A DNA stretch of 64,000 nucleotides from an uncultured Candidatus Bathyarchaeia archaeon (GCA_964632845.1 CAZWDU010000003.1:84686-148685), one strand, 5' to 3'. Shown: positions 1,061 to 17,472, counted from the first letter of the stretch. Numbers and translations are program-made. Notes: a model not told the origin generated them from the letters alone.

Positions 1061-1396
1061 TCAAGGTCGCTTCTGCGGAATGTACTGAAGCGAAATTGAC
1101 AATCGACTATGGCTCAAGCTATCACGCAAGTCATGATTCATACCCGAATCCTCAAGTCCAACCGTCGCATGACCCACGCGTTTAACTTTCCAGTTCTCAA
1201 GGTTTCCGCGTACAATCTGCGGGTTGCTAGTCACAATGAAGAATGGCATCCGAGTTTGCCTAGTGTAGAGTTCAGCGATGAAATTCAGCAACCGCTTGCC
1301 GATGCCGACGCCTTGGTAATCAGGTAACACAACCAGGCGGCTTACTCGGAAGTATCGGCTGCACATGTGAACGTGGATTACAGCGATGAATGCCAC
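1061..1396 (-). CDS. GNAT N-acetyltransferase domain; the frame is open upstream to nt 1543, so it is probably the C-terminal half of an ABC-ATPase/GNAT fusion
   Basis: GNAT motif A 'RLVVLPDYQGVGIGKRLL'. The upstream in-frame sequence 'VELRVYRCGHSAWKIFRQYHYLNGSLAPHCRCYVAIYHGVPVAF' reads as the missing GNAT N-terminal strands and has no start codon. Confidence 0.7.
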   Translation of the reverse strand: MAFIAVIHVHMCSRYFRVSRLVVLPDYQGVGIGKRLLNFIAELYTRQTRMPFFIVTSNPQIVRGNLENWKVKRVGHATVGLEDSGMNHDLRDSLSHSRLSISLQYIPQKRP

Positions 1397-1452
1397 AGGT
1401 ACACCATGGTAAATCGCGACGTAGCATCGGCAATGTGGCGCAAGGGAACCGT

Positions 1453-2139
1453 TTAGATAGTGATATTGTCGAAAAATTTTCCAAGCGGAGTGGCCGCACC
1501 GATAAACTCTGAGTTCAACGGGCGGCCTGACTCTTTTTTTCGGTCAAACACCATCGTGTCCGTGCAGAAAACCCAGTCAGGCTCCAACCAATCCACAACA
1601 TCATAATGGCACGTTACCGCAATGAACCGTTTTCCCTTTTGGCGCCGGACAGCTTTGCCGATGGCGAACGCGGCAACTTTCGCAACTTCACGATCAACCA
1701 CACTGGTGAACTCATCGAAAACAATCAATTCCTTCCCAGAACAAAGTGCGCGGGCGACGTCGACCCGCATCTTCTCACCCTGACTCAAGCAATCATAGCT
1801 CTTGAGCCAGTCAGGCGGCGAAGCAAACCCCACACTGCACAGAATTCGCGTGATCTCAGCCGTCCCAAGCTCCTCGGGAAAATCATCCAAAACGCAAGAA
1901 TGCGTATACTCAAAGCCTTTCACGTAGGCGTCGGGGAAAAGCTGCTTGGCTATGCTGGTTTTGCCTGTTCCGCTCCTGCCGACGATGACTCCAACTTGCC
2001 AGTCAAAGTCTTCAAAGGACAACTCGCCTCGAAAGCATTTCTCCAGCTTAACATCTGAAAGTGTGTATGAACCGACTACGCTCTGAGCTCTGAAACTCTG
2101 GGGTTGGTTCCAGCTTTTTACAAATTCAAAACGCGGCAT
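1453..2139 (-). CDS. compact ABC-type ATPase (228 aa as an ORF)
   Basis: Walker A 'GRSGTGKTS', signature-like 'LSQGEKMR', Walker B 'LIVFDEFTSVVD' and H-loop 'VTCHYD'. Confidence 0.8.
   Translation of the reverse strand: MPRFEFVKSWNQPQSFRAQSVVGSYTLSDVKLEKCFRGELSFEDFDWQVGVIVGRSGTGKTSIAKQLFPDAYVKGFEYTHSCVLDDFPEELGTAEITRILCSVGFASPPDWLKSYDCLSQGEKMRVDVARALCSGKELIVFDEFTSVVDREVAKVAAFAIGKAVRRQKGKRFIAVTCHYDVVDWLEPDWVFCTDTMVFDRKKESGRPLNSEFIGAATPLGKFFDNITI
1534..1540 (-). other. A7 run (A_AAA_AAA in the ATPase frame); a -1 shift here joins the ATPase frame to the GNAT frame
   Basis: Minus strand reads GAC CGA AAA AAA GAG. The -1 frame continues AGA GTC AGG CCG ... into the GNAT ORF without a stop. Confidence 0.5.
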
Positions 2140-2681
2140 TTCAAACCCTCAGCCACAAACCGTTCAAACTTCGCTTTCTGGTCAGCCTCATCCTTACACT
2201 CTATTATCAGTTCGTAGGTTTCAGGAACCGCACCCATGCGCTCTACTGGACCGCCGAGGTCTTCAGGCAGCTTTTCTCCAATGGATTGCAGCAGTTTTTC
2301 AAGATTATCTTTCTCTCCAGCTTCAATGATTCGACCATACTCTTCAAGGTCTAAGGCGCGTTGATGCTTACCCTTCAGCTTGTTCATGACCTGCCTAAGC
2401 AAGCGCCTGTCAACTTCTGAGACGGGCAGGCGCAGAACTGGGGCGAAGAATTCACCGTGAGTTTTGCAGACCGCAGCACGTTGCTCTCCGTCAGCGAACA
2501 CTCCATCTTTGTTGGTGAGGATTGGGTAGGTCCAACCGTACTTCTGAAGACTAACCCAAACCTGCTCCTGCTGTTTCAAACTCATCTTGTTCGGATTCTG
2601 GCCGTCACTCTTGAGGAGGCGGATGTCCTCTATGAGGTTGACGAAAGCCTCTGGTACACGAATCTTAGTTTGTGATGACAT
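2118..2681 (-). CDS. ParB/Srx N-terminal-domain protein (about 187 aa from the internal ATG at 2681)
   Basis: 'DGQNPNKMSLKQQEQVWVSLQKYGWTYPILTNKDGVFADGEQRAAV' fits the ParB-NTD pattern (NPx..., GxxRxxA arginine patch). Its end overlaps the ATPase start by 22 nt. Confidence 0.65.
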   Translation of the reverse strand: MSSQTKIRVPEAFVNLIEDIRLLKSDGQNPNKMSLKQQEQVWVSLQKYGWTYPILTNKDGVFADGEQRAAVCKTHGEFFAPVLRLPVSEVDRRLLRQVMNKLKGKHQRALDLEEYGRIIEAGEKDNLEKLLQSIGEKLPEDLGGPVERMGAVPETYELIIECKDEADQKAKFERFVAEGLKCRVLNL

Positions 2682-2745
2682 ATCTTTCACCGGAAACCCT
2701 GAGAAAAATGAAAAAGTGGGAAAATATGGAGAACAAGGCAAGCTC

Positions 2746-3192
2746 CTAATGCGTACCCGAAACAACTAGAACGTTGCTGAAATCCGTAAAGCCCGTCACA
2801 TTCGTAGAAACAGTCAACGTGAACGTCGCCTGAACAACCTGCCCAGCCGACAACACTATTCCCTGTCTATCCCATGCCACAGCAAGATAGGAGCCTGCTA
2901 TTGACGGAGACCAACTTGAAACTGCCAAGCTCAACGTCACCGCAACATTCCCAGTGTTCTTAACGTACACACTCCGAGTCACAGAACTGTCAGGATCCAC
3001 TACGCCCCAATCAATGCTCGTAGCATTCACGGTACAAGCTGAATCCTGATAGACACCCAAGTTAACCGCGATAATATTGCCGTAGCTGCTTATCGACTGC
3101 GAACGGCTCAGTGACGCCACTGCTGTGTATGAAACGAGGACTGCCAAGCAAACCACGAACATGGCACCAGCTAACCTTTTTGATTCATTCAA
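2746..3192 (-). CDS. secreted or membrane-anchored beta-sandwich (Ig/CARDB-like) protein
   Basis: The N-terminus 'KRLAGAMFVVCLAVLVSY' is a signal or class-III-like anchor. 'SVYVKNTGNVAVTLSL' is typical of CARDB-type folds. TTG start with GGGGGTGA upstream. Confidence 0.55.
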   Translation of the reverse strand: MNESKRLAGAMFVVCLAVLVSYTAVASLSRSQSISSYGNIIAVNLGVYQDSACTVNATSIDWGVVDPDSSVTRSVYVKNTGNVAVTLSLAVSSWSPSIAGSYLAVAWDRQGIVLSAGQVVQATFTLTVSTNVTGFTDFSNVLVVSGTH

Positions 3193-3285
3193 ACTTACAA
3201 TTCACCCCCAACGAATAAACAAGAAATGAAAAACGCGATTACTACGAGGATCCTAAGCCTTTGGAATGCTCGCAGTAACCTTGAG

Positions 3286-3459
3286 CTAAGTTTTGGTGTT
3301 GACTCCTTCGCTCCAGAAGCCAACAATTGCAGCTGTCACAGTTCCAGCTAAAGCAGCCTCGGCAGGACGACCCAACGCCAGCAAATAACCGCTTATGCCA
3401 GACCCGACGGTGCCAGCTAAAACAACCAGTTTCTCTTTTGTTGCACTAACCTGAACCAA
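3286..3459 (-). CDS. possible 57-aa membrane protein (below the track cutoff)
   Basis: My translation is LVQVSATKEKLVVLAGTVGSGISGYLLALGRPAEAALAGTVTAAIVGFWSEGVNTKT, with a TTG start 8 nt after GGAGGTGA. It is Gly/Ala-rich and hydrophobic. Confidence 0.3.
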   Translation of the reverse strand: MVQVSATKEKLVVLAGTVGSGISGYLLALGRPAEAALAGTVTAAIVGFWSEGVNTKT

Positions 3460-3504
3460 ACATTTTCACCTCCCTTCCAAATTATTACGATCACCTAGAC
3501 GAGA

Positions 3505-4167
3505 CTAAGCAAAGGTGAACGTCAATCTCCATTCAATCGTCAAAGGAACGCTCGTGTTAACAACGAAAGCAGTGAAGTCACCGTCCGCAGCGCTCAAACG
3601 ACTAAACAAAGCCGTGCCAGCACCGTTGAAATCAGTCCAGCCGAAACCCTGCAAACCAGTCTGCAGATAGAGGAACAAGCCAAGTTCTGAAACCGTAATA
3701 GCAGTCAGCGATCCAGCGTTCCACGTCGCTGTCCAAGATACACGATAAGTTCCGCCGCCTGGAGAAGACGTGGCGCCAGCTTGAGAATCAGGACCTGTCC
3801 CAACAGGCGTAGTCAATCCAGTTGTGGTTCCCTGAGTAACGTTTCCGCCAGTTCCAAGCCGCATGTACGTATAGACTCTACCAGTCCACTCACGAGAGAA
3901 GAGATACTTGTAGCTTGAAGAGGCGTTCGTAGTAGAAGCAGATAAAGCATTGATCAAGTGGACTAAGCCCTGGTTGACGATGTGACCTTTGCTTGCGAAC
4001 TTGAGTTTGGCGCCTTCATAAACAAGAATTTCATCAGTTACTTTGACGACGTCGCCGAATGTGTTTCTGCGTTTGAAGACGTCTTTAATTTTCTGCCTTG
4101 AGAGGCAAAGCATACGCTTCAGGTTGTTGTATTCCGCAGTTGTTAGCGGTCTTCTTGGTAATTCCAT
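3505..4167 (-). CDS. putative tail fibre / receptor-binding protein
   Basis: It is the last large gene of the tail module. The middle is Gly/Thr-rich and the C-terminus is beta-rich. Confidence 0.45.
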   Translation of the reverse strand: MELPRRPLTTAEYNNLKRMLCLSRQKIKDVFKRRNTFGDVVKVTDEILVYEGAKLKFASKGHIVNQGLVHLINALSASTTNASSSYKYLFSREWTGRVYTYMRLGTGGNVTQGTTTGLTTPVGTGPDSQAGATSSPGGGTYRVSWTATWNAGSLTAITVSELGLFLYLQTGLQGFGWTDFNGAGTALFSRLSAADGDFTAFVVNTSVPLTIEWRLTFTFA

Positions 4168-4185
4168 TTTTGTTTTGCACCTCCA

Positions 4186-4437
4186 TTAAGAATTCGTAAT
4201 TGTCGTTGATTCTGAATAGATCGGGGCATCTTCGCCCACTTTTCCATCTGCCTGAAGCATGTCCTCCATCTCGCCGAAAGAATCATCAAACATCTTTGCT
4301 TCAGCCAAAACAAAAACTTCAGTCGGAACAGGATGATCGCCAATGCTTCCTCTTAGATAAGCGATGAACCCGCTCTCTTGCCCCATGTTCCAAGCATTCT
4401 CCCTTCCAACTTGTCCCCTAATGATTTCTACTGGCAT
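4186..4437 (-). CDS. hypothetical virion-module protein (83 aa)
   Basis: Sits tightly between the baseplate and fibre genes and is acidic. Confidence 0.4.
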   Translation of the reverse strand: MPVEIIRGQVGRENAWNMGQESGFIAYLRGSIGDHPVPTEVFVLAEAKMFDDSFGEMEDMLQADGKVGEDAPIYSESTTITNS

Positions 4438-4446
4438 TTTTCACCC

Positions 4447-6558
4447 TCACTCATTTGTAATCGTTAGCTCCTCGGAAAAATCTGGAAAATCTTCCCTCGC
4501 AATGTTCTCGTTCATGCTCTGAACGTGAGTCTCGGCATAGACGCAGACTTCCCCAACCTGTTTGGTTCCGCCGTGGTTCACGTAGAGAGATTCAGTCATG
4601 TTGAACTCAAGCTGGCGTCTCTCTTCCAAAAGTGAAGCTTGAGGCGCAGAATTACATTGAATCTCATCTTCGAAGCGAATCAGCTCGATTGGGTCGAAGA
4701 GGATGGCGTCTGAGAAAAGCGCTTGCTCCAAGCTCTGCAGGTACCCGTCTGCCAGGTTGATAGTTATGAAGCCGAATTCTTCTTCGGGCGGCGGTTCTTC
4801 CTCTTCGCCAGTTCCGCCACCCTGAGCGTTATTAAGCCCAGAATCCTTAGCTGATAGCGCCTCTTGAAAGGCCACTAAGGCGTCAGCGAGTTTGAATCCT
4901 CGGTTTTGAAAAAGAACAGCTGTCTTCACGCCTCTAGCTGAGAAGCTGAACTCAACACTTTTAACTTCGCCATTAAACTCGTTTAAGCCGACTTCTGTGT
5001 TGGTGATTGTCGCCATGCAGTAGAGTTCGATAGGCACGATGTTCTGGGTTGTTAAAGCGATTTCCTTAGTGAGTTCCTTGTACTTCTGAAGCAAGCCTTG
5101 AGCTTTGGCTTGAGTGGCTGCCTGAGAGGATAGGCTTGTGTCTTTGAAGGTTTTGTCACGACGCCAGTAACTGCTCCCACTGGTTGAATCGTGCGCTGTG
5201 TACTCGTAGGGTGCGCCAGAACTGGTTTTTCCAACTTGATGGACGTAGTTTACGACTTCGTCGATGTCCCTGTTGCTGATGTTGAATTGGTCAGTTTTGC
5301 TCTTGAACGGAATACTGCTTTGGCTTCGGGCAAGGCTGAACGGCATGAAGTAGACGGTTTTGTTGAAATCGACGCCCCAAACGAAAACACACGCGTCTGC
5401 AAGCTCCTTAATGATCTTAGAAACCGTTACAGCGTTGTACTCAGCTGAAGTGGGCAAATCCTCTGGGATGCCTTCCAGAACATTGTCATAAGAGAATACG
5501 CCGTCGAAGTAGGTTTTAATCAGGTCCTTAACTATGAAGCCACAAGTCTTGTTCGAGTACGTCTTGTTGTAGGCTTCTCGGAAGTCCAAGCGTTTAGCAT
5601 AGCCTTTCCCGCTCTCAATCTTCAGCCGTGAAGGCGGATAGGTTCTCTCGGGAGCTTCAATGTAGCCTCTGAAAAGTAGGTAGAGGATGGCTTCGGTTCC
5701 CGCTCTTATTTCAATCTCAGATTTGACGCTGAGCTCGTCGTACTTGTTGCCCTCGTTCTTTATGGTTAAAGAGGCCTGTGGATGGCTTCCGTCGCGGAGA
5801 GCAACTCTGAAATCTATCACGTCGTCAGTGATTACTCTCTTTTCCAATCCAGTAACGGAGCTCACGATTGCCTTGGCTTTTCGGGTCTGGTTTCCGAAAA
5901 CAAGCAATGTCTTTGCGTAGAACTCTATTGAATCTGAGGCGTTTGCCATCGCGCTGAAGGCACAGCGAAGCGTTCCTGAAAGGCTCGGGTCACACCAATC
6001 GCTAATTGACCAGACCGTCGAACCATCCGAAGCCAGCTTTATCGTGAGGACAACCTGCAGTTTTGACGTGTCAACCGAGTAAGGTGTGACTTCCATCTCA
6101 ATGATGTACTCGGTTCCAAGTGACCAGGAAACGGCGGAGGTGTTAATTTTAGGCGAGTAGTTCTGCGATAACACAAACTTGAATTTGTTATCAGCTGTAG
6201 TCCCGTAAACATCCGCAACCCACATGCCATAAACTTCGGTTCCAAGAAAGTGACCATCCCGAACGTCAGGCGAGAGAAGATAGAAGTAAAAGCCAAAATC
6301 AATAGGCTTCACCATTACACGAATCTTGAATGGCACTTTAAACTCGGCTCGACTCATCAGATTTAAGCTGCCCCAACCGCTCGAATCAACAGCAGCCGCA
6401 AACCGGCAACCGTTAACTGTCGGCTCAATCGTGCCATCGGTGAAATCCACGCTGGAATTCTCACGCGTGAGGAATGCAAACCATTTTCCTCTATCTGGCG
6501 GATAACCAGCCGTGCCAATGAATGAGTCTTTGAAGAGAACGTTCTTGTACTCACCCAT
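4447..6558 (-). CDS. large tail-tip / baseplate protein (Tal-like, 703 aa)
   Basis: Its size and position directly after the Dit-like gene and the TMP match the siphovirus order. Confidence 0.6.
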   Translation of the reverse strand: MGEYKNVLFKDSFIGTAGYPPDRGKWFAFLTRENSSVDFTDGTIEPTVNGCRFAAAVDSSGWGSLNLMSRAEFKVPFKIRVMVKPIDFGFYFYLLSPDVRDGHFLGTEVYGMWVADVYGTTADNKFKFVLSQNYSPKINTSAVSWSLGTEYIIEMEVTPYSVDTSKLQVVLTIKLASDGSTVWSISDWCDPSLSGTLRCAFSAMANASDSIEFYAKTLLVFGNQTRKAKAIVSSVTGLEKRVITDDVIDFRVALRDGSHPQASLTIKNEGNKYDELSVKSEIEIRAGTEAILYLLFRGYIEAPERTYPPSRLKIESGKGYAKRLDFREAYNKTYSNKTCGFIVKDLIKTYFDGVFSYDNVLEGIPEDLPTSAEYNAVTVSKIIKELADACVFVWGVDFNKTVYFMPFSLARSQSSIPFKSKTDQFNISNRDIDEVVNYVHQVGKTSSGAPYEYTAHDSTSGSSYWRRDKTFKDTSLSSQAATQAKAQGLLQKYKELTKEIALTTQNIVPIELYCMATITNTEVGLNEFNGEVKSVEFSFSARGVKTAVLFQNRGFKLADALVAFQEALSAKDSGLNNAQGGGTGEEEEPPPEEEFGFITINLADGYLQSLEQALFSDAILFDPIELIRFEDEIQCNSAPQASLLEERRQLEFNMTESLYVNHGGTKQVGEVCVYAETHVQSMNENIAREDFPDFSEELTITNE

Positions 6559-7367
6559 TACTCGAACCCTCCCACGTCGTCGACAGCGAAAAAGTAGCTC
6601 TGAGCCTGCGACTTTGTCACAGCCAGTTTTATCATGTCAACTTGTCCCCAGTCCAGGTCGCCAAAATTGGCGAATGAAGTCTTGGGAATGCGAAGCCCAA
6701 GCCATTTGTCGGATTCAGTCAACAAGGCTGAAAAATCATAGGTTGCCGTGTGAACGCCTTCAGTAACAGAGACAACAGCACTGGTAATCTCTGAAATGTT
6801 ATCCATCAACCACCCGAAGCTTACCCAGTCAAAATCCTCAAGGTCGATGGCGTCCAAGGGTTCATACGTCACGTTTACTTCTTCAGATGCTTCAGCGCTG
6901 TGACTAACTTTTAGACAACCTAAACCCTCGAACGGAGTTGGAGCGTCAGAAGCAATAGCGACAACGGCGCCTATTGTCGAACTAGACCAGTCAGCGATTC
7001 CGTCGCACGCATTAACTTGCTTGAATAAGCTTTCCTTCAGCGATAAGCCATATCGGAGGATTTCCACGCCAATCTTGACAAGCTTAACCTCTTTGACAAA
7101 AACAACCGTCTTCACGGCGTCAGAGTCCAGTTCTAAGCTGTTTCCAATGCACTTGAACCGTTGGAACTGTTTGAAATCATCGTATCTGCTGGTTCCTCGT
7201 AGTATTCCAGAAAGCTCTATCGTAGAGGCAAGCTCTCCAAGGTCCTGACTGCCTGAACCGCGAGCAGTTGGCAAGTCGATGTCTTCAAGCCTTTTTCTAT
7301 CCGAAAAGCTGAGTCCATTAACGATGCCGAGATTTAGATCGCCAAGCGTAACTGTCATTTTGGTCAC
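6558..7367 (-). CDS. distal tail protein (Dit-like)
   Basis: 269 aa, immediately downstream of the TMP, with a 4-nt overlap at its start and a 1-nt overlap at its end. Confidence 0.5.
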   Translation of the reverse strand: MTKMTVTLGDLNLGIVNGLSFSDRKRLEDIDLPTARGSGSQDLGELASTIELSGILRGTSRYDDFKQFQRFKCIGNSLELDSDAVKTVVFVKEVKLVKIGVEILRYGLSLKESLFKQVNACDGIADWSSSTIGAVVAIASDAPTPFEGLGCLKVSHSAEASEEVNVTYEPLDAIDLEDFDWVSFGWLMDNISEITSAVVSVTEGVHTATYDFSALLTESDKWLGLRIPKTSFANFGDLDWGQVDMIKLAVTKSQAQSYFFAVDDVGGFE

Positions 7368-8446
7368 CTCGGCACAAAGAACGTCTGAGCCTTCAAGTCC
7401 GAGCGCACAATTCGGCTTAGATGCTCGTAGGCAGCTTCAGCAAATTCCCGCGGATCCTGAGCATTACTTAAACTGCCCTCTGGGAAATTAAACGTAGGTG
7501 CCAAGACCAAAGTTTGAGAACCAGCATTCCCAGAAACTCTATCCAATGGAATAACAGCCTCAGCTCCAGCCTCACCAATCAAAGCGACTGTGGGCTTGGT
7601 GACTATGCCTCCTTCCGCCAGCCCGATGAGTCCCTTAATTCCAGCGATACCGGCTCCAACGGCAGCCAAAATCACAGGCACAGCTACACCAAGCGTCACC
7701 GTACCCTGAAACGCCATCCAAGCAACAGTCGCAGCAACAACCGCAGCGATTCCAACCATCAACGCAGAAGCAATACCACGCAAATTTTCAGGAAGAGCCT
7801 TCAACAATGCGTCTCCAGCTAAGAAACCTCCGATGAAGGCGCCTACGCCGAGCGCTGCAGTCTTCGCACTGATGCCAACGTTGTTAATCCTGCTTGAAAC
7901 ATTGCTTAGCATTCCAGTGACGTCGGGAAAATTCTTCCAAACACGACTTAAACTATCAACCATAGAAATGCTCGTGGGAATAACCTGCAATGCGCTTCGC
8001 ATCATAGCCTCGTTCATGTTTCCCTGAACAACTTCCGCTTTTTCAACAGCGAGTTGATAGCGATCCTGAGCCAGCTTCAGGTCGTCAGCTGCGGCTTTAG
8101 CCTGGTCACTATCGGCTCCATACTTTTCAACGGCAACGTTTAATCGCCTCTGAGCATCCTCGACGCTGTTTAGGCTGCTCTTGACTTGGAGGTTGGCTCG
8201 GTCAAGCGAAACCTGCATATCCTGAACACGGTCAACCGCATCATAGAGGCTGAAGGCGCTCGTGGCAAGGTTGTTAAAGCCTAACGCAAGGTCCTTAGTG
8301 CTGGCTTCGCTTTGTTTCTGAGCCTCAGAAACTCGTTTTCCAGCATCCTCGACTTCTTTAAGGCTACCGTTGATTTTGGTTCCAGCGTCCGCTATGGTTT
8401 TACTTGCCTCATCCGTAGCTTTCAGAAGTACATTGATTTCGCTCAT
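7364..8446 (-). CDS. tail tape measure protein
   Basis: The N-terminal half is coiled-coil, the middle is Gly/Ala-rich and hydrophobic, and the C-terminal motif 'GGIVTKPTVALIGEAGAEAVIPL' is typical of TMPs. Confidence 0.8.
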   Translation of the reverse strand: MSEINVLLKATDEASKTIADAGTKINGSLKEVEDAGKRVSEAQKQSEASTKDLALGFNNLATSAFSLYDAVDRVQDMQVSLDRANLQVKSSLNSVEDAQRRLNVAVEKYGADSDQAKAAADDLKLAQDRYQLAVEKAEVVQGNMNEAMMRSALQVIPTSISMVDSLSRVWKNFPDVTGMLSNVSSRINNVGISAKTAALGVGAFIGGFLAGDALLKALPENLRGIASALMVGIAAVVAATVAWMAFQGTVTLGVAVPVILAAVGAGIAGIKGLIGLAEGGIVTKPTVALIGEAGAEAVIPLDRVSGNAGSQTLVLAPTFNFPEGSLSNAQDPREFAEAAYEHLSRIVRSDLKAQTFFVPR

Positions 8447-8452
8447 AACAGT

Positions 8453-8979
8453 CTACTTCGTTTTAGACCATTCCAGCCAACCTGCCAAGAAGCTGAGCTG
8501 GAAAGGAGTTAGCCCAGCGATGTACTCCAGCGAGTAGCCATACTCGTGTGCTATCAAGCCGAAGAGCTGGGCGTCTTTATTGGCTGTAATCCACTCAGCT
8601 GTTGCTGTCGCAAAAAAAGCGGAAACCTCTTCGTCAACCGCTCAGTCAAAATCGCCTTAATATCAAAAGGCATAGCTTCAAAGTCTTCATACGTAAAATC
8701 TGGACTCGCTTTTTGGAGCATCGCATGTACAACACGGTAGGCTTGCTCTTCTTCGTCTTTGACTTCTGCGAGGTTTAACGCCTTGAACTCCCTGCTGGTC
8801 AAATAGCCATATCGGATTTCGCCAAGGTCCTTATCCATGAGCGTTTGAATCTGCTTTGCATTCTCGGCGATTGCTTTAGGGTCGAAGAGTCTCGCGTTCT
8901 TAGCATCGACTTCCTTCTGCTCTGTCTCGTGCTCTTCCAGCTTCTGCTTAAACTCCGCAACCTTGTGTTCTTCAGTCAT
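8453..8979 (-). CDS. predicted -1 frameshift product (gpGT-like) of the tail assembly chaperone
   Basis: After T_TTT_TTG the -1 frame reads ATATAEWITANKDAQLFGLIAHEYGYSLEYIAGLTPFQLSFLAGWLEWSKTK and stops at TAG 8453-8455, 7 nt before the TMP ATG. Confidence 0.65.
8554..8979 (-). CDS. tail assembly chaperone (gpG-like, 0-frame product)
   Basis: Acidic 141-aa ORF between the tail tube gene and the TMP, containing a slippery heptamer near its 3' end. Confidence 0.7.
   Translation of the reverse strand: MTEEHKVAEFKQKLEEHETEQKEVDAKNARLFDPKAIAENAKQIQTLMDKDLGEIRYGYLTSREFKALNLAEVKDEEEQAYRVVHAMLQKASPDFTYEDFEAMPFDIKAILTERLTKRFPLFLRQQQLSGLQPIKTPSSSA
8611..8617 (-). other. slippery heptamer T_TTT_TTG (X_XXY_YYZ) in the chaperone 0 frame
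   Basis: Minus strand reads CCG CTT TTT TTG CGA; the plus strand shows caaaaaaag at 8611-8619. Confidence 0.65.
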
Positions 8980-8985
8980 GGCTCA

Positions 8986-9387
8986 TCACGTCAGAGTTCC
9001 TGGCTGTAGGTCGTCGCCTTCGCCTTCCATAGACTGCATCACAACCCCAGTTTGCTTCTGGTCAAGTTTCCAGTTGGTGAAGACAACGTTTTTCACGGTG
9101 AGCTTAGGCTTGCCTGTTCCAGCGCCCGCAGGATCCAACTCGATGTCCACCGGGTCGCCTGTCAAAACGACCGTGGCATACGTATTATCGACGTACATGC
9201 TTTCCACTGAGACTTTGTAGCTCTGGTTGCCATCTTCGAGGATGGATGGTTTGTTGCTTCCTAAAGCGTAGTCTTTGACGAGTTCGACGCCGATGGATAC
9301 GGAGACGCCTTTTGCGTAGCCAATCGCCGTTCCAGCTTTCTTGACAACGCCATTTCTTCCAACTATTGGAGTACTCATTTTTTTCAA
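8986..9387 (-). CDS. major tail (tube) protein
   Basis: 133 aa, beta-rich, placed directly before the chaperone/TMP pair. Confidence 0.7.
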   Translation of the reverse strand: MKKMSTPIVGRNGVVKKAGTAIGYAKGVSVSIGVELVKDYALGSNKPSILEDGNQSYKVSVESMYVDNTYATVVLTGDPVDIELDPAGAGTGKPKLTVKNVVFTNWKLDQKQTGVVMQSMEGEGDDLQPGTLT

Positions 9388-9399
9388 CTCACGCTAAGT

Positions 9400-9843
9400 T
9401 TATGACTGTGAATGAAAGAGAAGCGCTTCGAAGCGAATTTCTCCCCCATAGAACAGTTTGTTTTCGAACTTGATTTCGCCCGGAGCAAAACTCGTAGGAA
9501 TAACGTCAACGACTTTTCCGCCCAAGGTCCTATCCGCTAGAACGGCATCGACGACGTCAGCCATGACGGTTATGATGTCTTGGAACCAATTCTTAGGCGC
9601 ATATTCGTTGATTATGAGAATCACGCTGAAGTTGACCTTGACTTCTAAGAGTTCTCCAAGCGTTCCCTGTGAGATTGGCGAAGGCAGAGCATTTACAACG
9701 GCTTTAGGCAACTGCCCATACGAGAACTGCTCGCCCAACAACACGGACTTAATGGAACTCTTCGTTTCAATGGCGGCTTTCACCGCGTCGAAGACTTCCT
9801 TGTATGAAGTGTAGAAACCCATTAGCTTAGTAACTCCAGCCAT
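9400..9843 (-). CDS. tail terminator / tail completion protein
   Basis: Assigned by position between the gp10-like gene and the tube gene. Confidence 0.45.
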   Translation of the reverse strand: MAGVTKLMGFYTSYKEVFDAVKAAIETKSSIKSVLLGEQFSYGQLPKAVVNALPSPISQGTLGELLEVKVNFSVILIINEYAPKNWFQDIITVMADVVDAVLADRTLGGKVVDVIPTSFAPGEIKFENKLFYGGEIRFEALLFHSQS

Positions 9844-10250
9844 AACTCGGCGAAGATTTCGTCAACTTTACTACGAGCATCCTCAACCGCATTTTGCATG
9901 AAGGGATTAGGTTGAGAGCCTGGATGATGTACAATAGGAGTGAAGACGGTTCTGCCATTGGCTTCAAACGCGAGAACCGAAGCGTTAACGGGTCTAATCT
10001 CATGCGGTCTAGTGCCTTTTACCACGTACATTGCATAAGGCGCCAAAGCCTGAATCGATGCTTCGCCATCACCAATTTCTTTAACGATTGAACCTGCAAG
10101 TTTGCCAGTCTTCCATGGAGCACGAAAAAACGCGGAAGCATGAGCGACGTCAGCGAGTTTCTCGATTAGCTTCTGCCGTAGTTCTTTGCTGAGCTTACTT
10201 GCAACTTCGTCGAATTCGAGTCCACTAGTGCTTATTTCAACCGAAAACAT
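9822..10250 (-). CDS. HK97 gp10-family head-tail joining protein
   Basis: 'WKTGKLAGSI...ALAPYAMYVVKGTRPH' matches the gp10-family pattern. Confidence 0.65.
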   Translation of the reverse strand: MFSVEISTSGLEFDEVASKLSKELRQKLIEKLADVAHASAFFRAPWKTGKLAGSIVKEIGDGEASIQALAPYAMYVVKGTRPHEIRPVNASVLAFEANGRTVFTPIVHHPGSQPNPFMQNAVEDARSKVDEIFAELWLELLS

Positions 10251-10253
10251 AGT

Positions 10254-10640
10254 TTAGCCTTCACTTGGATGCTGAGCAATTACTTCGCCTTCAAATTGGC
10301 TGAGACCTGCACACGTGAGCGTTTCTTTTTGGAGAATGTTCTTCACGTAAGCTGCAATCTTCGTTTGGTAGGCGTTGCGAAAGTTTATCGCTAAATCCTC
10401 TTTTTGTTCTTCAGGCTTCACGCGTCTAGACCTGAATAAGCTTGCAGCTAAATCGGCACAAGCATACCTTAGCAAGTCAGGGACAGAGGTTAAAGGCGTT
10501 TCAACATGCTTGTTCAAATCTGCATCCATGATTGCTTGAGCCTCAACGATGACATCTGCAAGTTCAGAGTCGAAGCTGACGTTGTCCTGCTCGATTTGCA
10601 GTCGTTGTTTCAAATCCTCTATTGAACAATAGTCGGTCAA
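10254..10640 (-). CDS. gp6-like head-tail connector / adaptor protein
   Basis: The N-terminus 'DYCSIEDLKQRLQIEQD..DSELADVIVEAQAIMD' is the typical adaptor signature. TTG start. Confidence 0.6.
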   Translation of the reverse strand: MTDYCSIEDLKQRLQIEQDNVSFDSELADVIVEAQAIMDADLNKHVETPLTSVPDLLRYACADLAASLFRSRRVKPEEQKEDLAINFRNAYQTKIAAYVKNILQKETLTCAGLSQFEGEVIAQHPSEG

Positions 10641-10719
10641 CTTGATGTTACCTACGCTGTTTTGAGGCTAAATCCAAAAAATGGGGAAAGAGAACGGTAC
10701 GTGAGAAAGTTCAGCGCTG

Positions 10720-11673
10720 TTATGCTGCGGGTGTGACGGTGCAAATGCTGTTGGCGATGCCGCCGTCCGCGCCGAAATCTTGGTGCGTGATGACACTGTT
10801 AAGCAACTTTAGAGGCTCGTAGTAAATCTCCGTTATAGGCTCAGATTGAGCTTCAGCAAGCACCGCAGATTCTCCTTTTGTGCCAACGATTGCGACAGCA
10901 GCAGTGGTGGCAGTTGAGAAATAGGGGTCAGCAAGCCAGTCTAACCCTAAAGCATTTGGTATTTTTCCACTGACAAGTGAGTCGGCGAGTGCTCCGTGGA
11001 ATTGAGAAACGTCATAGTCTGTGGTAAAAGCTGTCCACATGCTTGAAGGCGTGCACATGATAAAGTCGCTTCGGTGTCCATCGTCAGCGTTCAGCTTTAT
11101 GGCTGAGCCGATTTCCGCGAATGTCAGAATGCTTCCGCTCGCACAGGCTAGCGTGTTGCCTTTGTCTGTGATCATGTTGTCGACGACAATGTCGAGCATG
11201 GCTTTGCTTACTGCTTGTCCGCCCAATCTGCCGAATTGTTCAATGAACGGTATCGGAGACTGATTCAATAATAGGCTGCTGATGGGTGATGCGTCACCGT
11301 AGCTGGCTAAGGTGCAGGTGCGTTTTGCCACTGTTGGGTCAGTTGCCGTTACCGCGTTGCCTTCGGGGCTCCACGTCATATATCCTGCTTTGCTGATTAT
11401 CTGCGTCTCGACGGTTATTCCTGCGCCCCTTGCAACAGGAACCATCATGCAAACCGTTCTGGCGTCAACCCATGCGGTTAGCTCAAGCAATGCTCTTTGC
11501 TGAACCATCGTGGGCAACGCAACGTTTGACGTTGACGTGAGAAGCTCTTTAACAGTGAGTTTGGCAGCTTCGCTCTTGTTGAAAGTGTCAATGCTCTCTA
11601 GCAATGTTTTGCGTCGAGGATTCTTGTTCTCGTTTATTTTCTGAAGTAGCTCAATAAATTTTGCTTCATCCAA
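10720..11673 (-). CDS. major capsid protein (HK97-fold type)
   Basis: 317 aa, placed after the protease/scaffold gene, with a strong GGGAGG upstream of its TTG start. Confidence 0.75.
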   Translation of the reverse strand: MDEAKFIELLQKINENKNPRRKTLLESIDTFNKSEAAKLTVKELLTSTSNVALPTMVQQRALLELTAWVDARTVCMMVPVARGAGITVETQIISKAGYMTWSPEGNAVTATDPTVAKRTCTLASYGDASPISSLLLNQSPIPFIEQFGRLGGQAVSKAMLDIVVDNMITDKGNTLACASGSILTFAEIGSAIKLNADDGHRSDFIMCTPSSMWTAFTTDYDVSQFHGALADSLVSGKIPNALGLDWLADPYFSTATTAAVAIVGTKGESAVLAEAQSEPITEIYYEPLKLLNSVITHQDFGADGGIANSICTVTPAA

Positions 11674-11773
11674 ATCTTATTCCTCCCGATTGGAGTTTTA
11701 TTCTCTCGTTTGCACAACCCGCTATCAGGCGTGTGAAGCAGAGAGAACGCTTCCTAACGTGTAGGGAAAACAG

Positions 11774-12838
11774 TTAGTGGGATTTTTTCTCGATTGCCGT
11801 TAAGACTTCCATCGCTACGAGCCTGAAGGCTTCTTGCCTGCTGGCGCCCTCATCGCGTAGCTGATTGAAGCGTTTCCAGTAGCCTTCCCGAGATAAAACG
11901 TCGGGTTCCTGCTTCTGTATGCTCGTAGTATCAGCAGGCTTGTCTGCTTTCGCAGCGAGCTTCTGGTTCAAGTCGTCAATCTGTTTCCTTGAGTCGTCTA
12001 GTTGCTTGCGGAGGTCGCCAATCATGTTCATAACGTCAATTTCAGGTTTTGTGAATTCAGCCAGCTTAGTCTCCAACTTTGTGAGTCGTTCGCTGTTCTG
12101 GCACTCATGAGCCTTTCTTTCCTTCGGCGTTACTACTTGAGCTTTTGAACTGCAACCTTGGCAGCCGAGACACTCAAGAAGCTGTTCAAACGGCTGAATC
12201 CGTGTCACAGGCACTCCAGGCAAAACATCCTTCGTCAACCAAGCCAAACCGTCAAACTGAAGCCCGTTGCATTGACGACTGCCGTCAGCTCCAAGGGTGT
12301 CAGGCCGGACGCCGTGAGCTTCGATGCTTACGTGAATGATGCCCTTCGGATTAGTCTCTGCGTTGTCAAGCAGGTCGCAGAAGTTACCAGCACTGCACAC
12401 AAAATCCTTGGGCACACGAGCCAGTACTTCGCTTACGTTGTTCTCAAACTCTGCGTCAACAAGCTCAATTGCCGAAAGCATCTCTTCGGTGTGGTTAAGG
12501 TTGTTCGGCTTTCTCACCAGAGTTCTTGTTCCCGCAGCGAGTTCCTCAGCCGTGTACTTGTTAGCGTTCATGCTTGTCCAAGGAAAGAGTGCTTCAACTT
12601 TGTACCATTTCGCCGTCTCATCTTCTTTGACACGTTGAATGTGGCACTTTGTCCAGCTAAACGATTCCTTCGGTGGACTGCCATAAGGCAACGTTTCATC
12701 CAGCTTCAGGACAGAGAGCCAATGCTGATACTCTTTCTCGCCGTCAACGCCATAGCGTTTAATGAACGCTGAGAGGATTCTATCAAAATCTACATGACGA
12801 ATAGACATAACAAAGTCACTGTGAGAAAGGCAACTCAA
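11774..12838 (-). CDS. prohead protease fused to a scaffolding-like coiled coil
   Basis: Sits between the portal and MCP genes. It has 'LNHTEE' in the N-terminal domain and a C-terminal heptad-rich region 'LTKLETKLAEF...LRKQLDDSRKQIDDLNQKLAAK'. Confidence 0.5.
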   Translation of the reverse strand: MSCLSHSDFVMSIRHVDFDRILSAFIKRYGVDGEKEYQHWLSVLKLDETLPYGSPPKESFSWTKCHIQRVKEDETAKWYKVEALFPWTSMNANKYTAEELAAGTRTLVRKPNNLNHTEEMLSAIELVDAEFENNVSEVLARVPKDFVCSAGNFCDLLDNAETNPKGIIHVSIEAHGVRPDTLGADGSRQCNGLQFDGLAWLTKDVLPGVPVTRIQPFEQLLECLGCQGCSSKAQVVTPKERKAHECQNSERLTKLETKLAEFTKPEIDVMNMIGDLRKQLDDSRKQIDDLNQKLAAKADKPADTTSIQKQEPDVLSREGYWKRFNQLRDEGASRQEAFRLVAMEVLTAIEKKSH

Positions 12839-12871
12839 AGATGTGAAACTGATACTGCAAAACTACATCAG

Positions 12872-13672
12872 TTACTTGCGTTTCTTCAAATAGATCGCGG
12901 CAGCCGCCAAGAAAGGCGCCACCCATGTCGCAATTGCTACTCCCAACACAAATGGTGACAACTCAAGCTCTCGATTTGAGCGAGGTGCAAACTGTGGAAG
13001 GCTGGGAAAAGGGATATACAATAAGAGAATCCAAAAGAGAATCAAGACTAAAACCGTCAAAACTATGTCAGGAATCTTTTTCGAGAGTCTTACGGGAAAT
13101 AAAAACGGGACGCTTTTGCTGTAACTTTTAAAGCAGTCTCCGAGTTTCTTTGTCAAGCGCCATTCCTCGAACTTGGCAATAGCGATGTACCCAAAAGCTG
13201 ACAATAGCCAATAACTCATAACCTCGAACCTTGTGTTGCTCCAATACTGCCCCATGGTTGCTACCATGAAACTCAACCCAAAAGTAATCAAAATGATGCC
13301 TGTGAACTGAGGGTGCCTCATACGGGAATACAAGCCTGAATCGATGAGTTCATTGCCCTTACGACGGCTCAAAAGCAACTGTACCAGAGCAACCAACAGA
13401 ATCGCGACACCGACAAAGGCGATTAACCTGCCAACCCAGAACTCAACTGCAAAAAGCATTATGTAGACACTATGAATCAGCGTTGCTGTAAACTGTGGGT
13501 TGTCGGTTGAAACCATTTGCCAGATGTAAGGCAGTAGCGGAATCACCATAATTCCCGTGAATATCCCAACGCTAAATACCGTCTGCAACCCAAAGAGCAA
13601 GACGGTGGCAACAGATTCGAATAGATGTCGCGCTTTTTCGCTTACGTTGACGGCATTAATCCCCCATAGCAA
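12872..13672 (-). CDS. ICMT/PEMT-family integral-membrane methyltransferase
   Basis: Multi-TM protein with the C-terminal signature 'GLYSRMRHPQFTGIILITFG ... FEEWRLTKKLGDCFKSYSKSVPFLFP' (RHPxY/FxG ... EE..L...G..Y..Y). Confidence 0.7.
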   Translation of the reverse strand: MLWGINAVNVSEKARHLFESVATVLLFGLQTVFSVGIFTGIMVIPLLPYIWQMVSTDNPQFTATLIHSVYIMLFAVEFWVGRLIAFVGVAILLVALVQLLLSRRKGNELIDSGLYSRMRHPQFTGIILITFGLSFMVATMGQYWSNTRFEVMSYWLLSAFGYIAIAKFEEWRLTKKLGDCFKSYSKSVPFLFPVRLSKKIPDIVLTVLVLILFWILLLYIPFPSLPQFAPRSNRELELSPFVLGVAIATWVAPFLAAAAIYLKKRK

Positions 13673-13764
13673 ATTACCAGTGCCTCCATATAATTCTACA
13701 CATTAGAACATCCGTGTGCAGAAAAATTCTAAGGCAACAGCAGTCAAAAAAACCCTTGACCGTC

Positions 13765-15096
13765 TCAAGTTCCGGCTGCAACCAGATTATTCATAAAGGC
13801 GCCCTTCAAATCTTCAGGTGAGTAGCCGAGCTTCTTGCTGGCTGCCGCAGGACTGATGATGCCATGCTCAATCTCCCTGCATAGTTTCTCGCTTAGTCGG
13901 TACACATCTTCAGCTTTCAAGGGACGCCAAACCAACCGCGCCATCTCAGGCACACCGGCAACCTTGAATACGTTAGCCTGATAGAACCGCTTTAACCTAC
14001 GCTGGTCATCTCTGACTTCAGCCTCTAACAATCGCTCTTGATAGTCAGCTGTAGCCATCGTTGTGGTTCCACCGACACCGAGAGCAATTTCGGGTACGCC
14101 TAAGCCGCCGATAAGTTCGTTCTCGAAATGCTTCAGCACAGGCTCAATCATCTGGCGGCTGTTTCCGATGTTTTTGTAGACTTCCTCGATTTTCAGGATA
14201 GTGCCGTCATTGTAGATGTCGCTTCCGTCAGGTCGCGTCTCCAATTGGTTTTTAACTTTGTTGAAATCCGTTTCGCTTATGTCATGGTCAGCGTCGCCCA
14301 AATCAATCTGAAGCAAAGGATGAGCAAGACGACGTGCAAGCCATGGAAGCTTCTTCTCCATGTACAAAATCGCTTTAAGGCAGGGCAGAATGTTGCGGAG
14401 ACTGCTTGTTCCGAAGCGGTCCCATGGACGGCAGTTGAACTTGAGATGCCAGATTTCTTCAGGTGGGTACTCGACCTTTTTGCCGACGGCTTCGGTGTAA
14501 ACGTATTGCTCCAGCGTTTTCTTGTCTGAAGACAGCTTAATGCCCATGAGCATAGGGTTTAACGGGTCCCAGATGTCGCCGTTTTTGTGCCAGTACATGT
14601 TCCCGAAAATCTTCGCATAAAGCGAACCATCACGCAAATATTCTTCGTCAATGATGGCGAGAGATGCCTTCGCTTTGTCGCTGATTTGATTTTTGCCGCC
14701 GAGGTCTATGTCGTAACCGTTCTGCCAAATCATCGCGTGCTTAACCATTACTGCTCGGTTCACGTAGGGCACGAGGTCGAAAGCATCCTGATAATCCGCA
14801 TAATCGTTAAAGTCTTCGGGCACGGTTACGCCGCTGGAAGGCAAGTAGTTGACCTTAGCCATCTGCGACAGGTTCAACGTTTGAACGCTTTCACTAATCA
14901 GCTTGGCGCCTTGTAGGATTCCGCGAATGCTCGTAGTAGAAGCTGCGTTCTTCATCTCGGTTGAAGCGACAAGATAGTTCTGCGATTCGCTTGCACCGAA
15001 ACTGAGAAGGCACTTTCTAGTCTTTGGCTTAGAAAGCTCTGTTACTTTCTTCTCTAGGTCTCGAATGCGTTTTCCAGCGGTAAACGGATTAAACAT
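13765..15096 (-). CDS. portal protein
   Basis: 443 aa, downstream of the large terminase and upstream of the protease and MCP genes. Confidence 0.75.
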   Translation of the reverse strand: MFNPFTAGKRIRDLEKKVTELSKPKTRKCLLSFGASESQNYLVASTEMKNAASTTSIRGILQGAKLISESVQTLNLSQMAKVNYLPSSGVTVPEDFNDYADYQDAFDLVPYVNRAVMVKHAMIWQNGYDIDLGGKNQISDKAKASLAIIDEEYLRDGSLYAKIFGNMYWHKNGDIWDPLNPMLMGIKLSSDKKTLEQYVYTEAVGKKVEYPPEEIWHLKFNCRPWDRFGTSSLRNILPCLKAILYMEKKLPWLARRLAHPLLQIDLGDADHDISETDFNKVKNQLETRPDGSDIYNDGTILKIEEVYKNIGNSRQMIEPVLKHFENELIGGLGVPEIALGVGGTTTMATADYQERLLEAEVRDDQRRLKRFYQANVFKVAGVPEMARLVWRPLKAEDVYRLSEKLCREIEHGIISPAAASKKLGYSPEDLKGAFMNNLVAAGT

Positions 15097-15586
15097 GAAT
15101 GTTAAGCTCCCATCGACGCTTGTTCACGTTGTAGATCCAAACTGCAGACTTAATCAGAGATGCCACCTGAAGCATGTACGCTTGTCCCGCAGCAACCTGT
15201 TCAGGCGTGTTCTTAACCTTAAACCGTTTGGATTGATGCTCTATTGCCACGCAGTAGCCGACTCCGTAAGGCATCAATGGATAAGCTCTGCACAGCAACG
15301 GGCGGTCATTGTAAATCATGCAGCCAGAGTGCACGTTTAGGAAGGGACACTTTGCATCGCTGAACTGCCACGTCGTCACTTGTCCCGTCAAACTCTTCGT
15401 TAACGGAAAGAAATTAACCGTGACACCCAACCGCTTTGCCAACTGCTCAAGTCTAACCTTTTCTGAGCCTGTGATGGCAGCGCCGAATCGTTTCCCAAAT
15501 AGTTGCCGACAGCACTCGCCGCAAGCCTGACACCTGAATAGTGTTTGTATTTTTGGAATGTCTAAGCTGAAACTGCAGGGATTCAA
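15089..15586 (-). CDS. YkgJ-family CxxCxxCC cysteine-cluster protein
   Basis: 'RCQACGECCRQ' plus the distal 'CPFL..SGCMIYNDRPLLCRAYP'. Its end overlaps the portal start by 8 nt. Confidence 0.7.
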   Translation of the reverse strand: MNPCSFSLDIPKIQTLFRCQACGECCRQLFGKRFGAAITGSEKVRLEQLAKRLGVTVNFFPLTKSLTGQVTTWQFSDAKCPFLNVHSGCMIYNDRPLLCRAYPLMPYGVGYCVAIEHQSKRFKVKNTPEQVAAGQAYMLQVASLIKSAVWIYNVNKRRWELNIHV

Positions 15587-15588
15587 GG

Positions 15589-16917: not shown

Positions 16918-17470
16918 AACGTCTAAGAAGCTCAGTGGTTTCGGACAATTCGACGTTCTTCTGCACCTGTACAACGTTGTTGATTTTCACTTGAGGCTCC
17001 ATGTTCACTCTCGGAAGCAACCCGAGGCTCTGACGTAGCTCAACCTCAATCTTCACAACTGCTGCTAATGTGCGAGCTGCGCCAACCTTCGCATTGTCGT
17101 TATCGGCACCCTGCATAAGCCTAATCGCGTTTTCTCTCGCCAACTCCAGAAACTTCAGCACGTCTTTACCGTCATCCTGAGCGCTCCAGTTTGCCCAAAT
17201 GAATGGCTCCCACTTAGCTCGGCGGTCATAATCCCGACGTAGAGCAAACTCTGTCACTTTCTTATGGATGCCTTGGCTCTCGTAATTCTCAGTCAGTTGC
17301 TTGGCCAGAGCTCTCAAAGTCACGCTATTGACTGCACCACCGTAGTGCAAAAGCAAGAGGCGTTTGCGCCTATAGAACAGATCCAAATCCATCTGCACAA
17401 AGGGCTTATCCTTTGAGGGTATGGGCTGTTCTGGGACAGCGCTGTCCGAACTCTGTTCATTAGAACTCAT
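16820..17470 (-). CDS. putative terminase small subunit
   Basis: Assigned only by position immediately upstream of, and overlapping, TerL. Confidence 0.45.
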   Translation of the reverse strand: MSSNEQSSDSAVPEQPIPSKDKPFVQMDLDLFYRRKRLLLLHYGGAVNSVTLRALAKQLTENYESQGIHKKVTEFALRRDYDRRAKWEPFIWANWSAQDDGKDVLKFLELARENAIRLMQGADNDNAKVGAARTLAAVVKIEVELRQSLGLLPRVNMEPQVKINNVVQVQKNVELSETTELLRRYEFLFKGDVSTRVVQAGGSGEQVDKVEAANHK

Positions 17471-17472
17471 TT

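Follow-up and report, generated by a model that had tools for sequence, protein, structure and literature searches.

A predicted -1 frameshift at a conserved A7 run joins an ABC-type ATPase to a GNAT acetyltransferase in a virus gene family of Bathyarchaeia

How can a gene encode an acetyltransferase that has no start codon of its own? The question is raised by a 64,000-nucleotide (nt) stretch of DNA from an uncultured Candidatus Bathyarchaeia archaeon (GCA_964632845.1 CAZWDU010000003.1:84686-148685), which was analysed as a whole and which we refer to as the window. It contains a small module, all of whose features are on the minus strand, in which a ParB-like gene is followed by an ABC-type ATPase frame and a GNAT acetyltransferase frame, the last two being connected only via a -1 shift at a run of seven A residues (A7), A_AAA_AAA (1540-1534). 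A first-pass annotation had drawn attention to this arrangement and had offered an assembly indel, a fresh pseudogene or recoding as its possible causes. The layout that it described, with the ATPase frame running to 1453, the GNAT frame open from 1543 without a start, and the two overlapping across the A7 run at 1534-1540, is confirmed here, and of the three options it is recoding that the comparative data strongly support, through the invariance of the heptamer, selection on the GNAT frame and homology across the junction. We propose that the window gene undergoes programmed, hairpin-stimulated ribosomal -1 frameshifting to give ATPase-only and ATPase-GNAT isoforms, a reading to which these comparisons lead us to assign a probability of roughly 0.7.

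The ATPase open reading frame (ORF) starts with the ATG at 2139 and, read in the 0 frame, ends with the TAA at 1455-1453, giving a short product of 228 amino acids (aa), the last 26 of which come from the overlap region; the 0-frame tail of this product is ESGRPLNSEFIGAATPLGK. An ORF scan shows the GNAT frame to be open from 1543 to a stop at 1063-1061, and it is closed on its 5' side by a TGA (1544..1546) that lies one codon 5' of the heptamer. The first ATG, GTG or TTG within this frame is a GTG at 1396, 49 codons in. The slippery heptamer itself occupies 1534..1540, the run being exactly A7, and the 0 frame crosses it as CGA AAA AAA GAG, so that it lies in the X_XXY_YYZ register of a canonical -1 slippery heptamer. 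The 0-frame TAA (1453..1455) follows 78 nt past the heptamer and is formed within the Leu-Asn codons of a conserved HYLN motif of the -1 frame. A single -1 slip would produce a full trans-frame coding sequence, join(2139..1534, 1534..1061), of 359 aa, in which the -1-frame part (1061..1534) contributes 157 aa of linker and GNAT domain and the junction reads ...MVFDRKK-RVRPPVELRVYRCG....

Where is the -1 frame entered? Between the heptamer and the first possible start lie 49 codons whose -1-frame protein sequence is conserved (RPPVEL.VYRCG...W..FRQYHYLN) and has its homologue in the part of fused orthologues that comprises the linker, first strand and first helix. This bears out the earlier suggestion that N-terminal GNAT sequence is encoded ahead of any start codon. 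The trans-frame product, ...DRKK-RVRPPVELRVYRCG...W..FRQYHYLN, aligns gap-free to in-frame orthologues, one of which, P0004, reads ...DKKKRTRPPIKLEIHEC... at the junction and ...DKKKRTRPPIKLEIHECSRSLWSIFRQYHYLN over the stretch aligned to the 49-codon region. A frame that is closed upstream, lacks a start for 49 codons and aligns across the junction without a gap is most probably entered at the heptamer.

The same codons bear on the idea that the GNAT is made as a separate polypeptide, with translation starting internally or re-initiating at GTG 1396, or coupled to termination at the 0-frame stop. Two-gene annotations do exist among distant relatives, namely gp98/gp97 of Thomasclavelia TR-TP1 and ORF025/024 of Enterococcus 9184, but these too have the conserved HYL-motif region upstream of the annotated start and in the -1 frame. 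In the window GTG 1396 is the sole candidate start, and a product beginning there would omit the conserved -1-frame protein sequence that precedes it and that is homologous to the fused orthologues. Separate polypeptides would also leave an invariant heptamer and the hairpin described below unexplained, and we consider this explanation very unlikely indeed.

Used as query in a protein search, the fused sequence gave 7342 matches at E <= 0.001. Nearly all of the close matches (65-83% identity) are ATPase-only proteins of 221-228 aa from Bathyarchaeia metagenome-assembled genomes (MAGs) and metagenomes, and all of them carry one type of tail, ...RKKE.GRPLNS.FIGAA...ITI, produced when the GNAT N-terminus is read in the 0 frame; the farther matches (47-56% identity) are single-frame fusions of 350-375 aa. 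For P0006, the closest homologue, looking up the exact sequence did not lead to a contig. We fetched 158 loci, comprising 80 GTDB genome contigs (almost all from Bathyarchaeia, often several per MAG) and 78 IMG/VR contigs, and located the two halves of the gene separately by tblastn. In 90 of the 158 loci, which take in essentially every locus with at least 64% ATPase identity, the GNAT lies in the -1 frame and begins on the final A of the run; in 60 more distant ones it is in frame with the ATPase. The 0-frame stop falls exactly 78 nt 3' of the run in 86 loci, and the -1 GNAT frame is open over its full length in 74. Close homologues thus keep the slip site and are not separate genes with their own starts, and those 60 more distant ones are fused in frame. 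A separate scan of Joint Genome Institute (JGI) metagenomes, in which the downstream hairpin motif served as query, gave 108 distinct contigs; A7-G is present in 96 of these hairpin-bearing contigs, the others include about five longer runs of equal total length (and hence the same frame) and about three with a damaged site, and a simply in-frame junction occurs in none of the 108. Altogether the A7 run recurs in about 180 distinct sequences, and because the arrangement is found across several independent sequencing projects an assembly artefact is excluded. With 86 of the fetched loci and about 100 metagenome contigs showing it, the arrangement recurs much more often than chance would allow.

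Selection was assessed from 73 distinct frameshifted sequences. The median synonymous divergence (pS) is 0.82 in the ATPase and 0.78 in the GNAT, so that synonymous sites are saturated in both halves, and the corresponding nonsynonymous values (pN) are 0.15 and 0.27, with a GNAT dN/dS of about 0.14. By these measures the GNAT frame is under purifying selection, and its low pN at saturated pS means that it has been kept functional through long divergence and is therefore not the fresh pseudogene that had been entertained. Both Lys codons of the heptamer are AAA in 73/73 sequences and the register is the same in all 73; the preceding Arg codon is CGA or AGA, that is A-ending, in 54/54, and nucleotide alignment columns A10-A16 and G17 are invariant in the 73 sequences. 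Nearby Val, Thr, Leu and Asp codons have ordinary synonymous entropy. These comparisons indicate that the heptamer is conserved across diverged homologues beyond what the amino acid sequence requires. Homopolymers are error-prone, and some MAG loci do have extra indels and truncated GNAT frames; nonetheless, the A7 run in so many distinct sequences from independent projects, the saturated synonymous sites with an open and constrained GNAT frame, and the synonymously conserved heptamer contradict the notion that the junction is a sequencing or assembly indel or a recent pseudogene in which only the ATPase, or nothing, is functional, and we give it next to no weight.

Two side observations concern the distribution of these loci. 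In four metagenome contigs (L172, L183, L256 and L258) the hairpin and the GNAT start are preceded by unrelated sequence instead of an ATPase 3' end, and these may be recombinant or GNAT-only variants. Single Bathyarchaeia MAGs hold up to six diverged copies of the module with 72-80% identity to the window ATPase; the six are L021, L056, L064, L065, L066 and L072 of MAG MFD02416.bin.1.348, and other MAGs have 2-4 loci. The MAGs with multiple copies appear to hold many related proviruses or virus-derived elements.

The predicted trans-frame product has the length that had been estimated, about 359 aa, and matches Pfam ABC_tran (4.8e-08), Acetyltransf_1 (3.2e-09) and Acetyltransf_7 (6.8e-09), as well as Acetyltransf_10. 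Its ATPase motifs, read from the sequence, are Walker A GRSGTGKTS, signature LSQGEK, Walker B LIVFDE and H-loop CHY, and the corresponding columns are invariant in the homologue alignment; the top Foldseek matches of the AlphaFold (AF2) model are ABC nucleotide-binding domains (E about 1e-7). Motifs, Pfam and predicted fold agree in pointing to an ABC-type ATPase for the upstream half. GNAT proteins bind acetyl-CoA through motif A, Q/R-x-x-G-x-G/A, which in the downstream half takes the form YQGVGIGKRLL; within YQGVGIG the Q and two G are invariant and the third G nearly so. A profile of the GNAT half compared with PDB finds generic GNATs only, with NAT10 at E about 0.01, which is of no help for the substrate. 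Together with the Pfam matches these features identify the downstream half as a GNAT acetyltransferase. The AlphaFold model of the fused sequence has two domains, with a mean pLDDT of 82 and a pTM of 0.75, and its only two-domain Foldseek match is a weak one to TmcA (2zpa). Compared with phrog_11143 the trans-frame product gives E = 1.8e-93, with residues 31-356 covering profile positions 27-351 of 357, and it is for the trans-frame product only that this full-length match holds. The first-pass annotation had described an ATPase-acetyltransferase fusion as a recognised family without characterised function, and this agrees both with the name 'ABC-type ATPase with predicted acetyltransferase domain' that JGI applies to several homologues and with phrog_11143, a family that carries no functional assignment.

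The sequence immediately 3' of the heptamer is predicted by folding and motif conservation to form a stimulatory hairpin (1488..1533, minus strand). Its core G+C stem, GGCCGCCCG...CGGUGCGGCC, which begins 6 nt past the heptamer, pairs 1527-1519 with 1501-1499 and 1497-1492 and has one bulged U; to this is added a weaker lower helix that pairs 1533-1530 with 1491-1488. The minimum free energy (MFE) of 1455-1540(-) is -27.7 kcal/mol (z = -4.2), and 0/200 shuffles are as stable. A G+C-rich hairpin is found 6-7 nt 3' of the run in 54/54 A7 loci (mean -19.8 kcal/mol, z -3.1), whereas no structure is seen at 16 loci with nine A residues (A9) and no hairpin motif (mean -7.1 kcal/mol, z +0.3). The codons of the stem arms are nearly frozen at the synonymous level (CCC 55/60, GTT 55/57, CGG 56/64, TGC 71/72, GGC 57/57), and pS over the overlap is 0.405, half that of the flanks. 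The association between A7 and the hairpin across loci is, in these comparisons, the strongest argument for tying the hairpin to frameshifting.

We favour a ribosomal mechanism because an in-register heptamer, a 6-nt spacer and a stable downstream hairpin are its signature. One gene of a Bathyarchaeia head-tail virus or provirus would then yield two proteins: standard decoding would give the 228-aa ABC-type ATPase, and a fraction of ribosomes would step back one base on A_AAA_AAA (1540-1534) and go on in the -1 frame, making a 359-aa ATPase-GNAT fusion with the architecture of the single-frame phage orthologues of phrog_11143. The G+C-rich hairpin, from its position 6 nt downstream, would pause the ribosome over the heptamer. 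In Mg-chelatase cassettes in E. coli, A_AAA_AAA alone gives about 10% frameshifting, A9 about 40% and A11 63% (PMC3711429). As to purpose, our guess is that slipping could set a fixed ratio of short to long subunits in a dimeric ABC ATPase; like the efficiency of the slip and the level at which it would occur, ribosome or RNA polymerase, this is something that we infer.

Several considerations weigh against programmed ribosomal frameshifting, the first being that slippage during transcription would give the same fused protein: the archaeal RNA polymerase would add one A on the T7 template, and the resulting A8 mRNA would encode the fusion directly. Sister lineages have A9 without downstream structure, nine-base A/T runs are the classic length for polymerase slippage (PMC5009743), and natural in-frame A8 and A10 alleles show that the run is length-labile. 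Yet the window run is only 7 long (the classic threshold of at least 9 A/T is bacterial and may differ for an archaeal polymerase), the hairpin is always placed 3', where it can influence a ribosome but comes too late for a polymerase, which has yet to transcribe it, and the codon register is the same in 54/54 A7 loci, register being of consequence only for tRNA re-pairing. For the window we therefore regard transcriptional slippage as an unlikely route, if the most serious competitor; it is perhaps the main route in the A9 lineages, the hairpin-free members of which may rely on RNA-polymerase slippage or on unstimulated slipping. The dnaX genes provide a precedent for both arrangements, that of E. 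coli using a heptamer with stimulatory signals and that of Thermus slippage at a 9-base run (PMC5009743).

Among the same adverse points, the pairs of the core hairpin never vary within the A7 clade, and pair counts on the window MFE structure reveal no covariation there; the outer helix has a few double changes, amounting to weak covariation only. RNAalifold applied to all 73 junction sequences returned no consensus structure, because the set contains A9 lineages without the hairpin. A search of Rfam gave no match at E <= 1 across 900-2900. The inverted repeat could in principle be a site acting at the DNA level or an effect of dual coding. We considered a ParB-binding or packaging site and judged it less likely: the ParB-like gene is present in both A7 and A9 lineages, and the repeat tracks A7 only. 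A dozen loci have a truncated GNAT frame, and two of these are cut by contig ends; the remainder may be sequencing errors or real decay. Lastly, there are natural in-frame variants, with A8 (P0001/L159) or A10 (L093) runs or in frame through nearby indels (P0003 and P0041), and from these sequences it seems clear that some DNA-level frame switching occurs.

The placement of these variants is informative. On a rough neighbour-joining tree the A9 lineages branch at the base and the crown is made up of A7+hairpin lineages, with an A9 pair (L037 and L081) nested inside it. The non-A7 loci that were contrasted with the A7 clade (alignment A1) are L069-L072, L085-L092, L037/L081, L057 and L076; the in-frame variant P0004 is placed beside the A9 group L069-L072, and L093, in frame with A10, sits among the frameshifted L085-L092. 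The A7/A9 pattern together with the nested in-frame alleles suggests evolutionary switching between mechanisms, with some DNA-level change in length. That in-frame alleles are nested in this way among frameshifted kin, as is P0001 with its A8, is also what would be expected of phase variation, in which a contingency tract toggles between an ATPase-only (A7) and a fused (A8) allele. However, free toggling predicts mixed states and about 95% of the A7-clade consensus sequences are out of frame, a 7-base tract is short for a contingency locus, and phase variation does not explain the association with the hairpin; we view it as very improbable.

The same junction is found in phages of Firmicutes. 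Every Firmicutes-phage match listed in GenBank aligns in two or three pieces, and in each phage inspected the GNAT lies in the -1 frame with the 0-frame stop in the same HYL-motif codons; the loci are L280 3001-4070 (Streptococcus pyogenes prophage 315.4), L281 3001-4055 (Lactococcus P335 Orf24/25), L282, L283 and L285, and related IMG/VR loci were sampled as L290-L368. In a sample of S. pyogenes-type IMG/VR loci, 47/60 distinct loci need a -1 shift and 13/60 are in frame with an A10 run. The candidate slip sites are varied: GGTTTTTC in Streptococcus (315.4/phiNIH1.1) and Lactococcus phages, T_TTT_TTT or T_TTT_TTC in many contigs, A_AAA_AAG in Enterococcus 9184, G_GGA_AAT in L097/L102, A_AAG_GGC in Oenococcus Vinitor-27, and A9-A10 runs elsewhere. 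Heptamers of the canonical type occur at 16.1 per kb in the overlap window against 2.7 per kb in the ATPase body, about a six-fold difference in density, and the predicted trans-frame products align gap-free with fused orthologues, although the exact slip positions in these phages are putative. In GenBank the pair is annotated as 'ABC transporter' and 'hypothetical protein', and what we see looks like overlooked recurrent recoding in culturable phages.

The remainder of the module gives some indication of what the two products might do. The ParB/Srx-like gene (2118..2681, minus strand; ATG 2681, 187 aa) overlaps the start of the ATPase ORF by its last 22 nt, an overlap already pointed out in the first-pass annotation. 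A ParB-like character is suggested by matches to phrog_498 (2e-11) and to phrog_620, 'ParB-like partition protein' (8.5e-10), and the motifs QNPNK and DGEQRAAV can be seen in the sequence (compare the Box I/Box II-type motifs, NPR-like and G-x-x-R-x-x-A); Pfam, NCBIfam and PDB sequence searches gave no match for this protein. A ParB-like homologue lies directly upstream of the ATPase in 115/159 loci, distant phages included, typically with the same overlap, so that the co-occurrence of the two genes extends well beyond the window.

The module forms the end of a block of head-tail virus genes with TerL (15589-16974), a portal gene (13765-15096) and a tail protein gene (4447-6558), and the whole virus-like block (1061-17470, about 16.5 kb) has only packaging, head and tail genes besides the ParB/ATPase-GNAT module. 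It had been proposed to lie at the extreme end of a provirus; the position at the end of the head-tail block stands, and provirus boundaries did not emerge, a direct-repeat search for att sites over 500-22500 giving nothing convincing and no integrase being recognised by Pfam or PHROGs in the block. Scans for sigma-70 promoters and terminators were uninformative, the models being bacterial and the window archaeal. Beyond the block (17470-21757) are a Na+/Ca2+ exchanger gene (18372-19310) and a tRNA-Asn gene (21681-21757), and in other loci the neighbourhood of the module includes relatives of the ORFs at 18003-18365, 19596-20090 and 20297-21424. On the other side, a small plus-strand ORF of 85 aa (749-1006) runs towards the end of the GNAT gene in convergent orientation; no family match was obtained for it, and a 43%-identical counterpart is present in the same position and orientation in L069, so that it may belong to the element.

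In related viruses the module is usually directly upstream of small-terminase-like and TerL genes, and the same pair precedes the terminase in GenBank phages such as Gordonia Axumite (genes 1-4), Leptospira LE3, S. pyogenes 315.4, Streptococcus mitis MismyG and Lactococcus P335. Phages described as lytic, for example Leptospira LE3/LE4, also have it. Neighbouring genes in phages encode ASCH-domain proteins, an annotated 'tRNA-methyltransferase', a formyltransferase and an aspartate decarboxylase (Jace gp87); the PF00551 formyltransferase neighbour is Burkholderia phiE255 gp30, whose gene block comes after those for tail fibres, and the module-neighbour genes recorded in phage loci are at L280 4131-4508, L283 2617-2985, L282 3639-4031, L287 4080-4694, L289 4077-4502 and L286 1805-2452. 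When the ASCH proteins of Streptococcus and Oenococcus phages were compared with the Bathyarchaeia loci by tblastn, no counterpart emerged.

Two functions that had been suggested for the module, atypical partition or maintenance and defence, find no support here. The partner of the ParB-like protein is an ABC-GNAT and not a ParA/Walker-type partition ATPase as in ParABS, and the module is found in phages described as lytic and next to the terminase; no ParA was seen and no helix-turn-helix family was matched in Pfam/PHROG scans, parS sites not having been searched for. PADLOC gave partial, motif-level matches only, to mad3 (1.6e-09 over 75 residues with the ABC signature and Walker B) and to MTase_II (1.7e-06, on the ParB-like domain), and we reject a known defence system. 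Fusions of ParB-fold proteins to ASCH, methyltransferase or acetyltransferase domains are common (PMC12704722), and for one DNA base-modifying enzyme a phage ParB-like protein can serve as activator on double-stranded DNA (PMC13229309). The phage gene neighbourhoods point weakly to nucleic-acid or nucleotide modification, and by analogy we tentatively suggest, as one possibility among others, that the ParB-like partner and the ATPase-GNAT constitute an ATP-dependent acyltransferase acting on nucleic acid around packaging. A more sweeping version, which we find rather doubtful as a whole, would have ATPase/GNAT recoding repeatedly re-invented, family-wide, in bacterial and archaeal viruses, setting a fixed isoform ratio in an ABC dimer that, with the ParB-like partner, would carry out ATP-dependent nucleic-acid acylation; in Bathyarchaeia viruses the site would then preserve the trace of an evolutionary change of mechanism, A9 standing for transcriptional slippage and A7 for ribosomal frameshifting stimulated by the hairpin. 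If true, this would be Mom/TmcA-like logic and possibly a new viral DNA modification.

Whatever the function, the family has practical consequences. It appears that thousands of its database entries describe 221-228-aa 'ABC transporter ATP-binding proteins' and either overlook the acetyltransferase half or cut it short, and these annotations should be corrected. The occurrence of A7 with a hairpin and of A9 without one amounts to a natural experiment in which run length is traded against a stimulatory structure. Bathyarchaeia are hard to grow, but the out-of-frame junction in isolated, culturable Firmicutes phages makes bench tests possible, both of the recoding and of what this widespread ParB-linked phage module does.

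In the literature that we searched on COG2401 and on phage modules with ParB, ABC and acetyltransferase components, including a 2016 recoding review, we found no description of this module, nor of a frameshift within it. Within that literature the comparisons make a well-supported case that this is a new and unusually well-conserved instance of a known mechanism, in a widespread virus gene family, and it adds a comparatively well-supported example of recoding to the very few from Archaea. According to a 2021 review, fucA1, the alpha-L-fucosidase gene of Saccharolobus solfataricus, is so far the sole cellular gene of an archaeon for which a -1 programmed frameshift has been reported; further cases, either reported or suggested, concern Mg-chelatase and tailed viruses of haloarchaea (PMC8211752). 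The window site resembles fucA1 in its A-rich heptamer (A_AAA_AAT in fucA1), its short ORF overlap, the putative stem-loop beside it and the existence of other species whose orthologues are full-length in a single frame (PMC8211752). It differs in that fucA1 encodes a cellular enzyme and the window site is in a virus accessory gene, in that the review reports no conservation of the slippery sequence in full-length fucA1 homologues (PMC8211752) whereas the window site is found in about 180 diverged sequences, and in that the short fucA1 ORF encodes an 81-aa N-terminal fragment whereas both window products would hold a complete domain.

Other systems share one or another of these features. With regard to protein architecture, the phrog_11143 members of Gordonia Axumite (gp2), Rhodococcus Jace (gp86), Burkholderia phiE255 (gp29) and Leptospira LE3 are alike in that most have a ParB-like gene upstream, and differ in being encoded in a single frame where the window needs a -1 shift. 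TmcA/NAT10 also couples an NTPase to a GNAT, an analogy only, as its ATPase is of the helicase type and not the ABC type, the window protein lacks the tRNA-binding domain, and the TM-score is just 0.29; a phage 5mYOX with ParB offers a similar analogy, and no more, of a ParB-like activator of a DNA-modifying enzyme (PMC13229309). With regard to mechanism, IS3-family orfAB transposases and the poly-A Mg-chelatase genes likewise fuse two ORFs by a -1 shift at A_AAA_AAG or A_AAA_AAA (PMC3711429), in another gene family with other biology, the Mg-chelatase having been tested in E. coli only. The tau/gamma arrangement of dnaX is similar in that one gene gives rise to short and long ATPase-containing isoforms, but the proteins are unrelated, and the frameshift product is the short form in dnaX where in the window it would be the long one. 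The parallel extends to the sites themselves, as the contrast between A_AAA_AAG with its signals in E. coli and the 9-base run of Thermus thermophilus (PMC5009743) matches that between A7 with a hairpin and A9 in the viruses described here.

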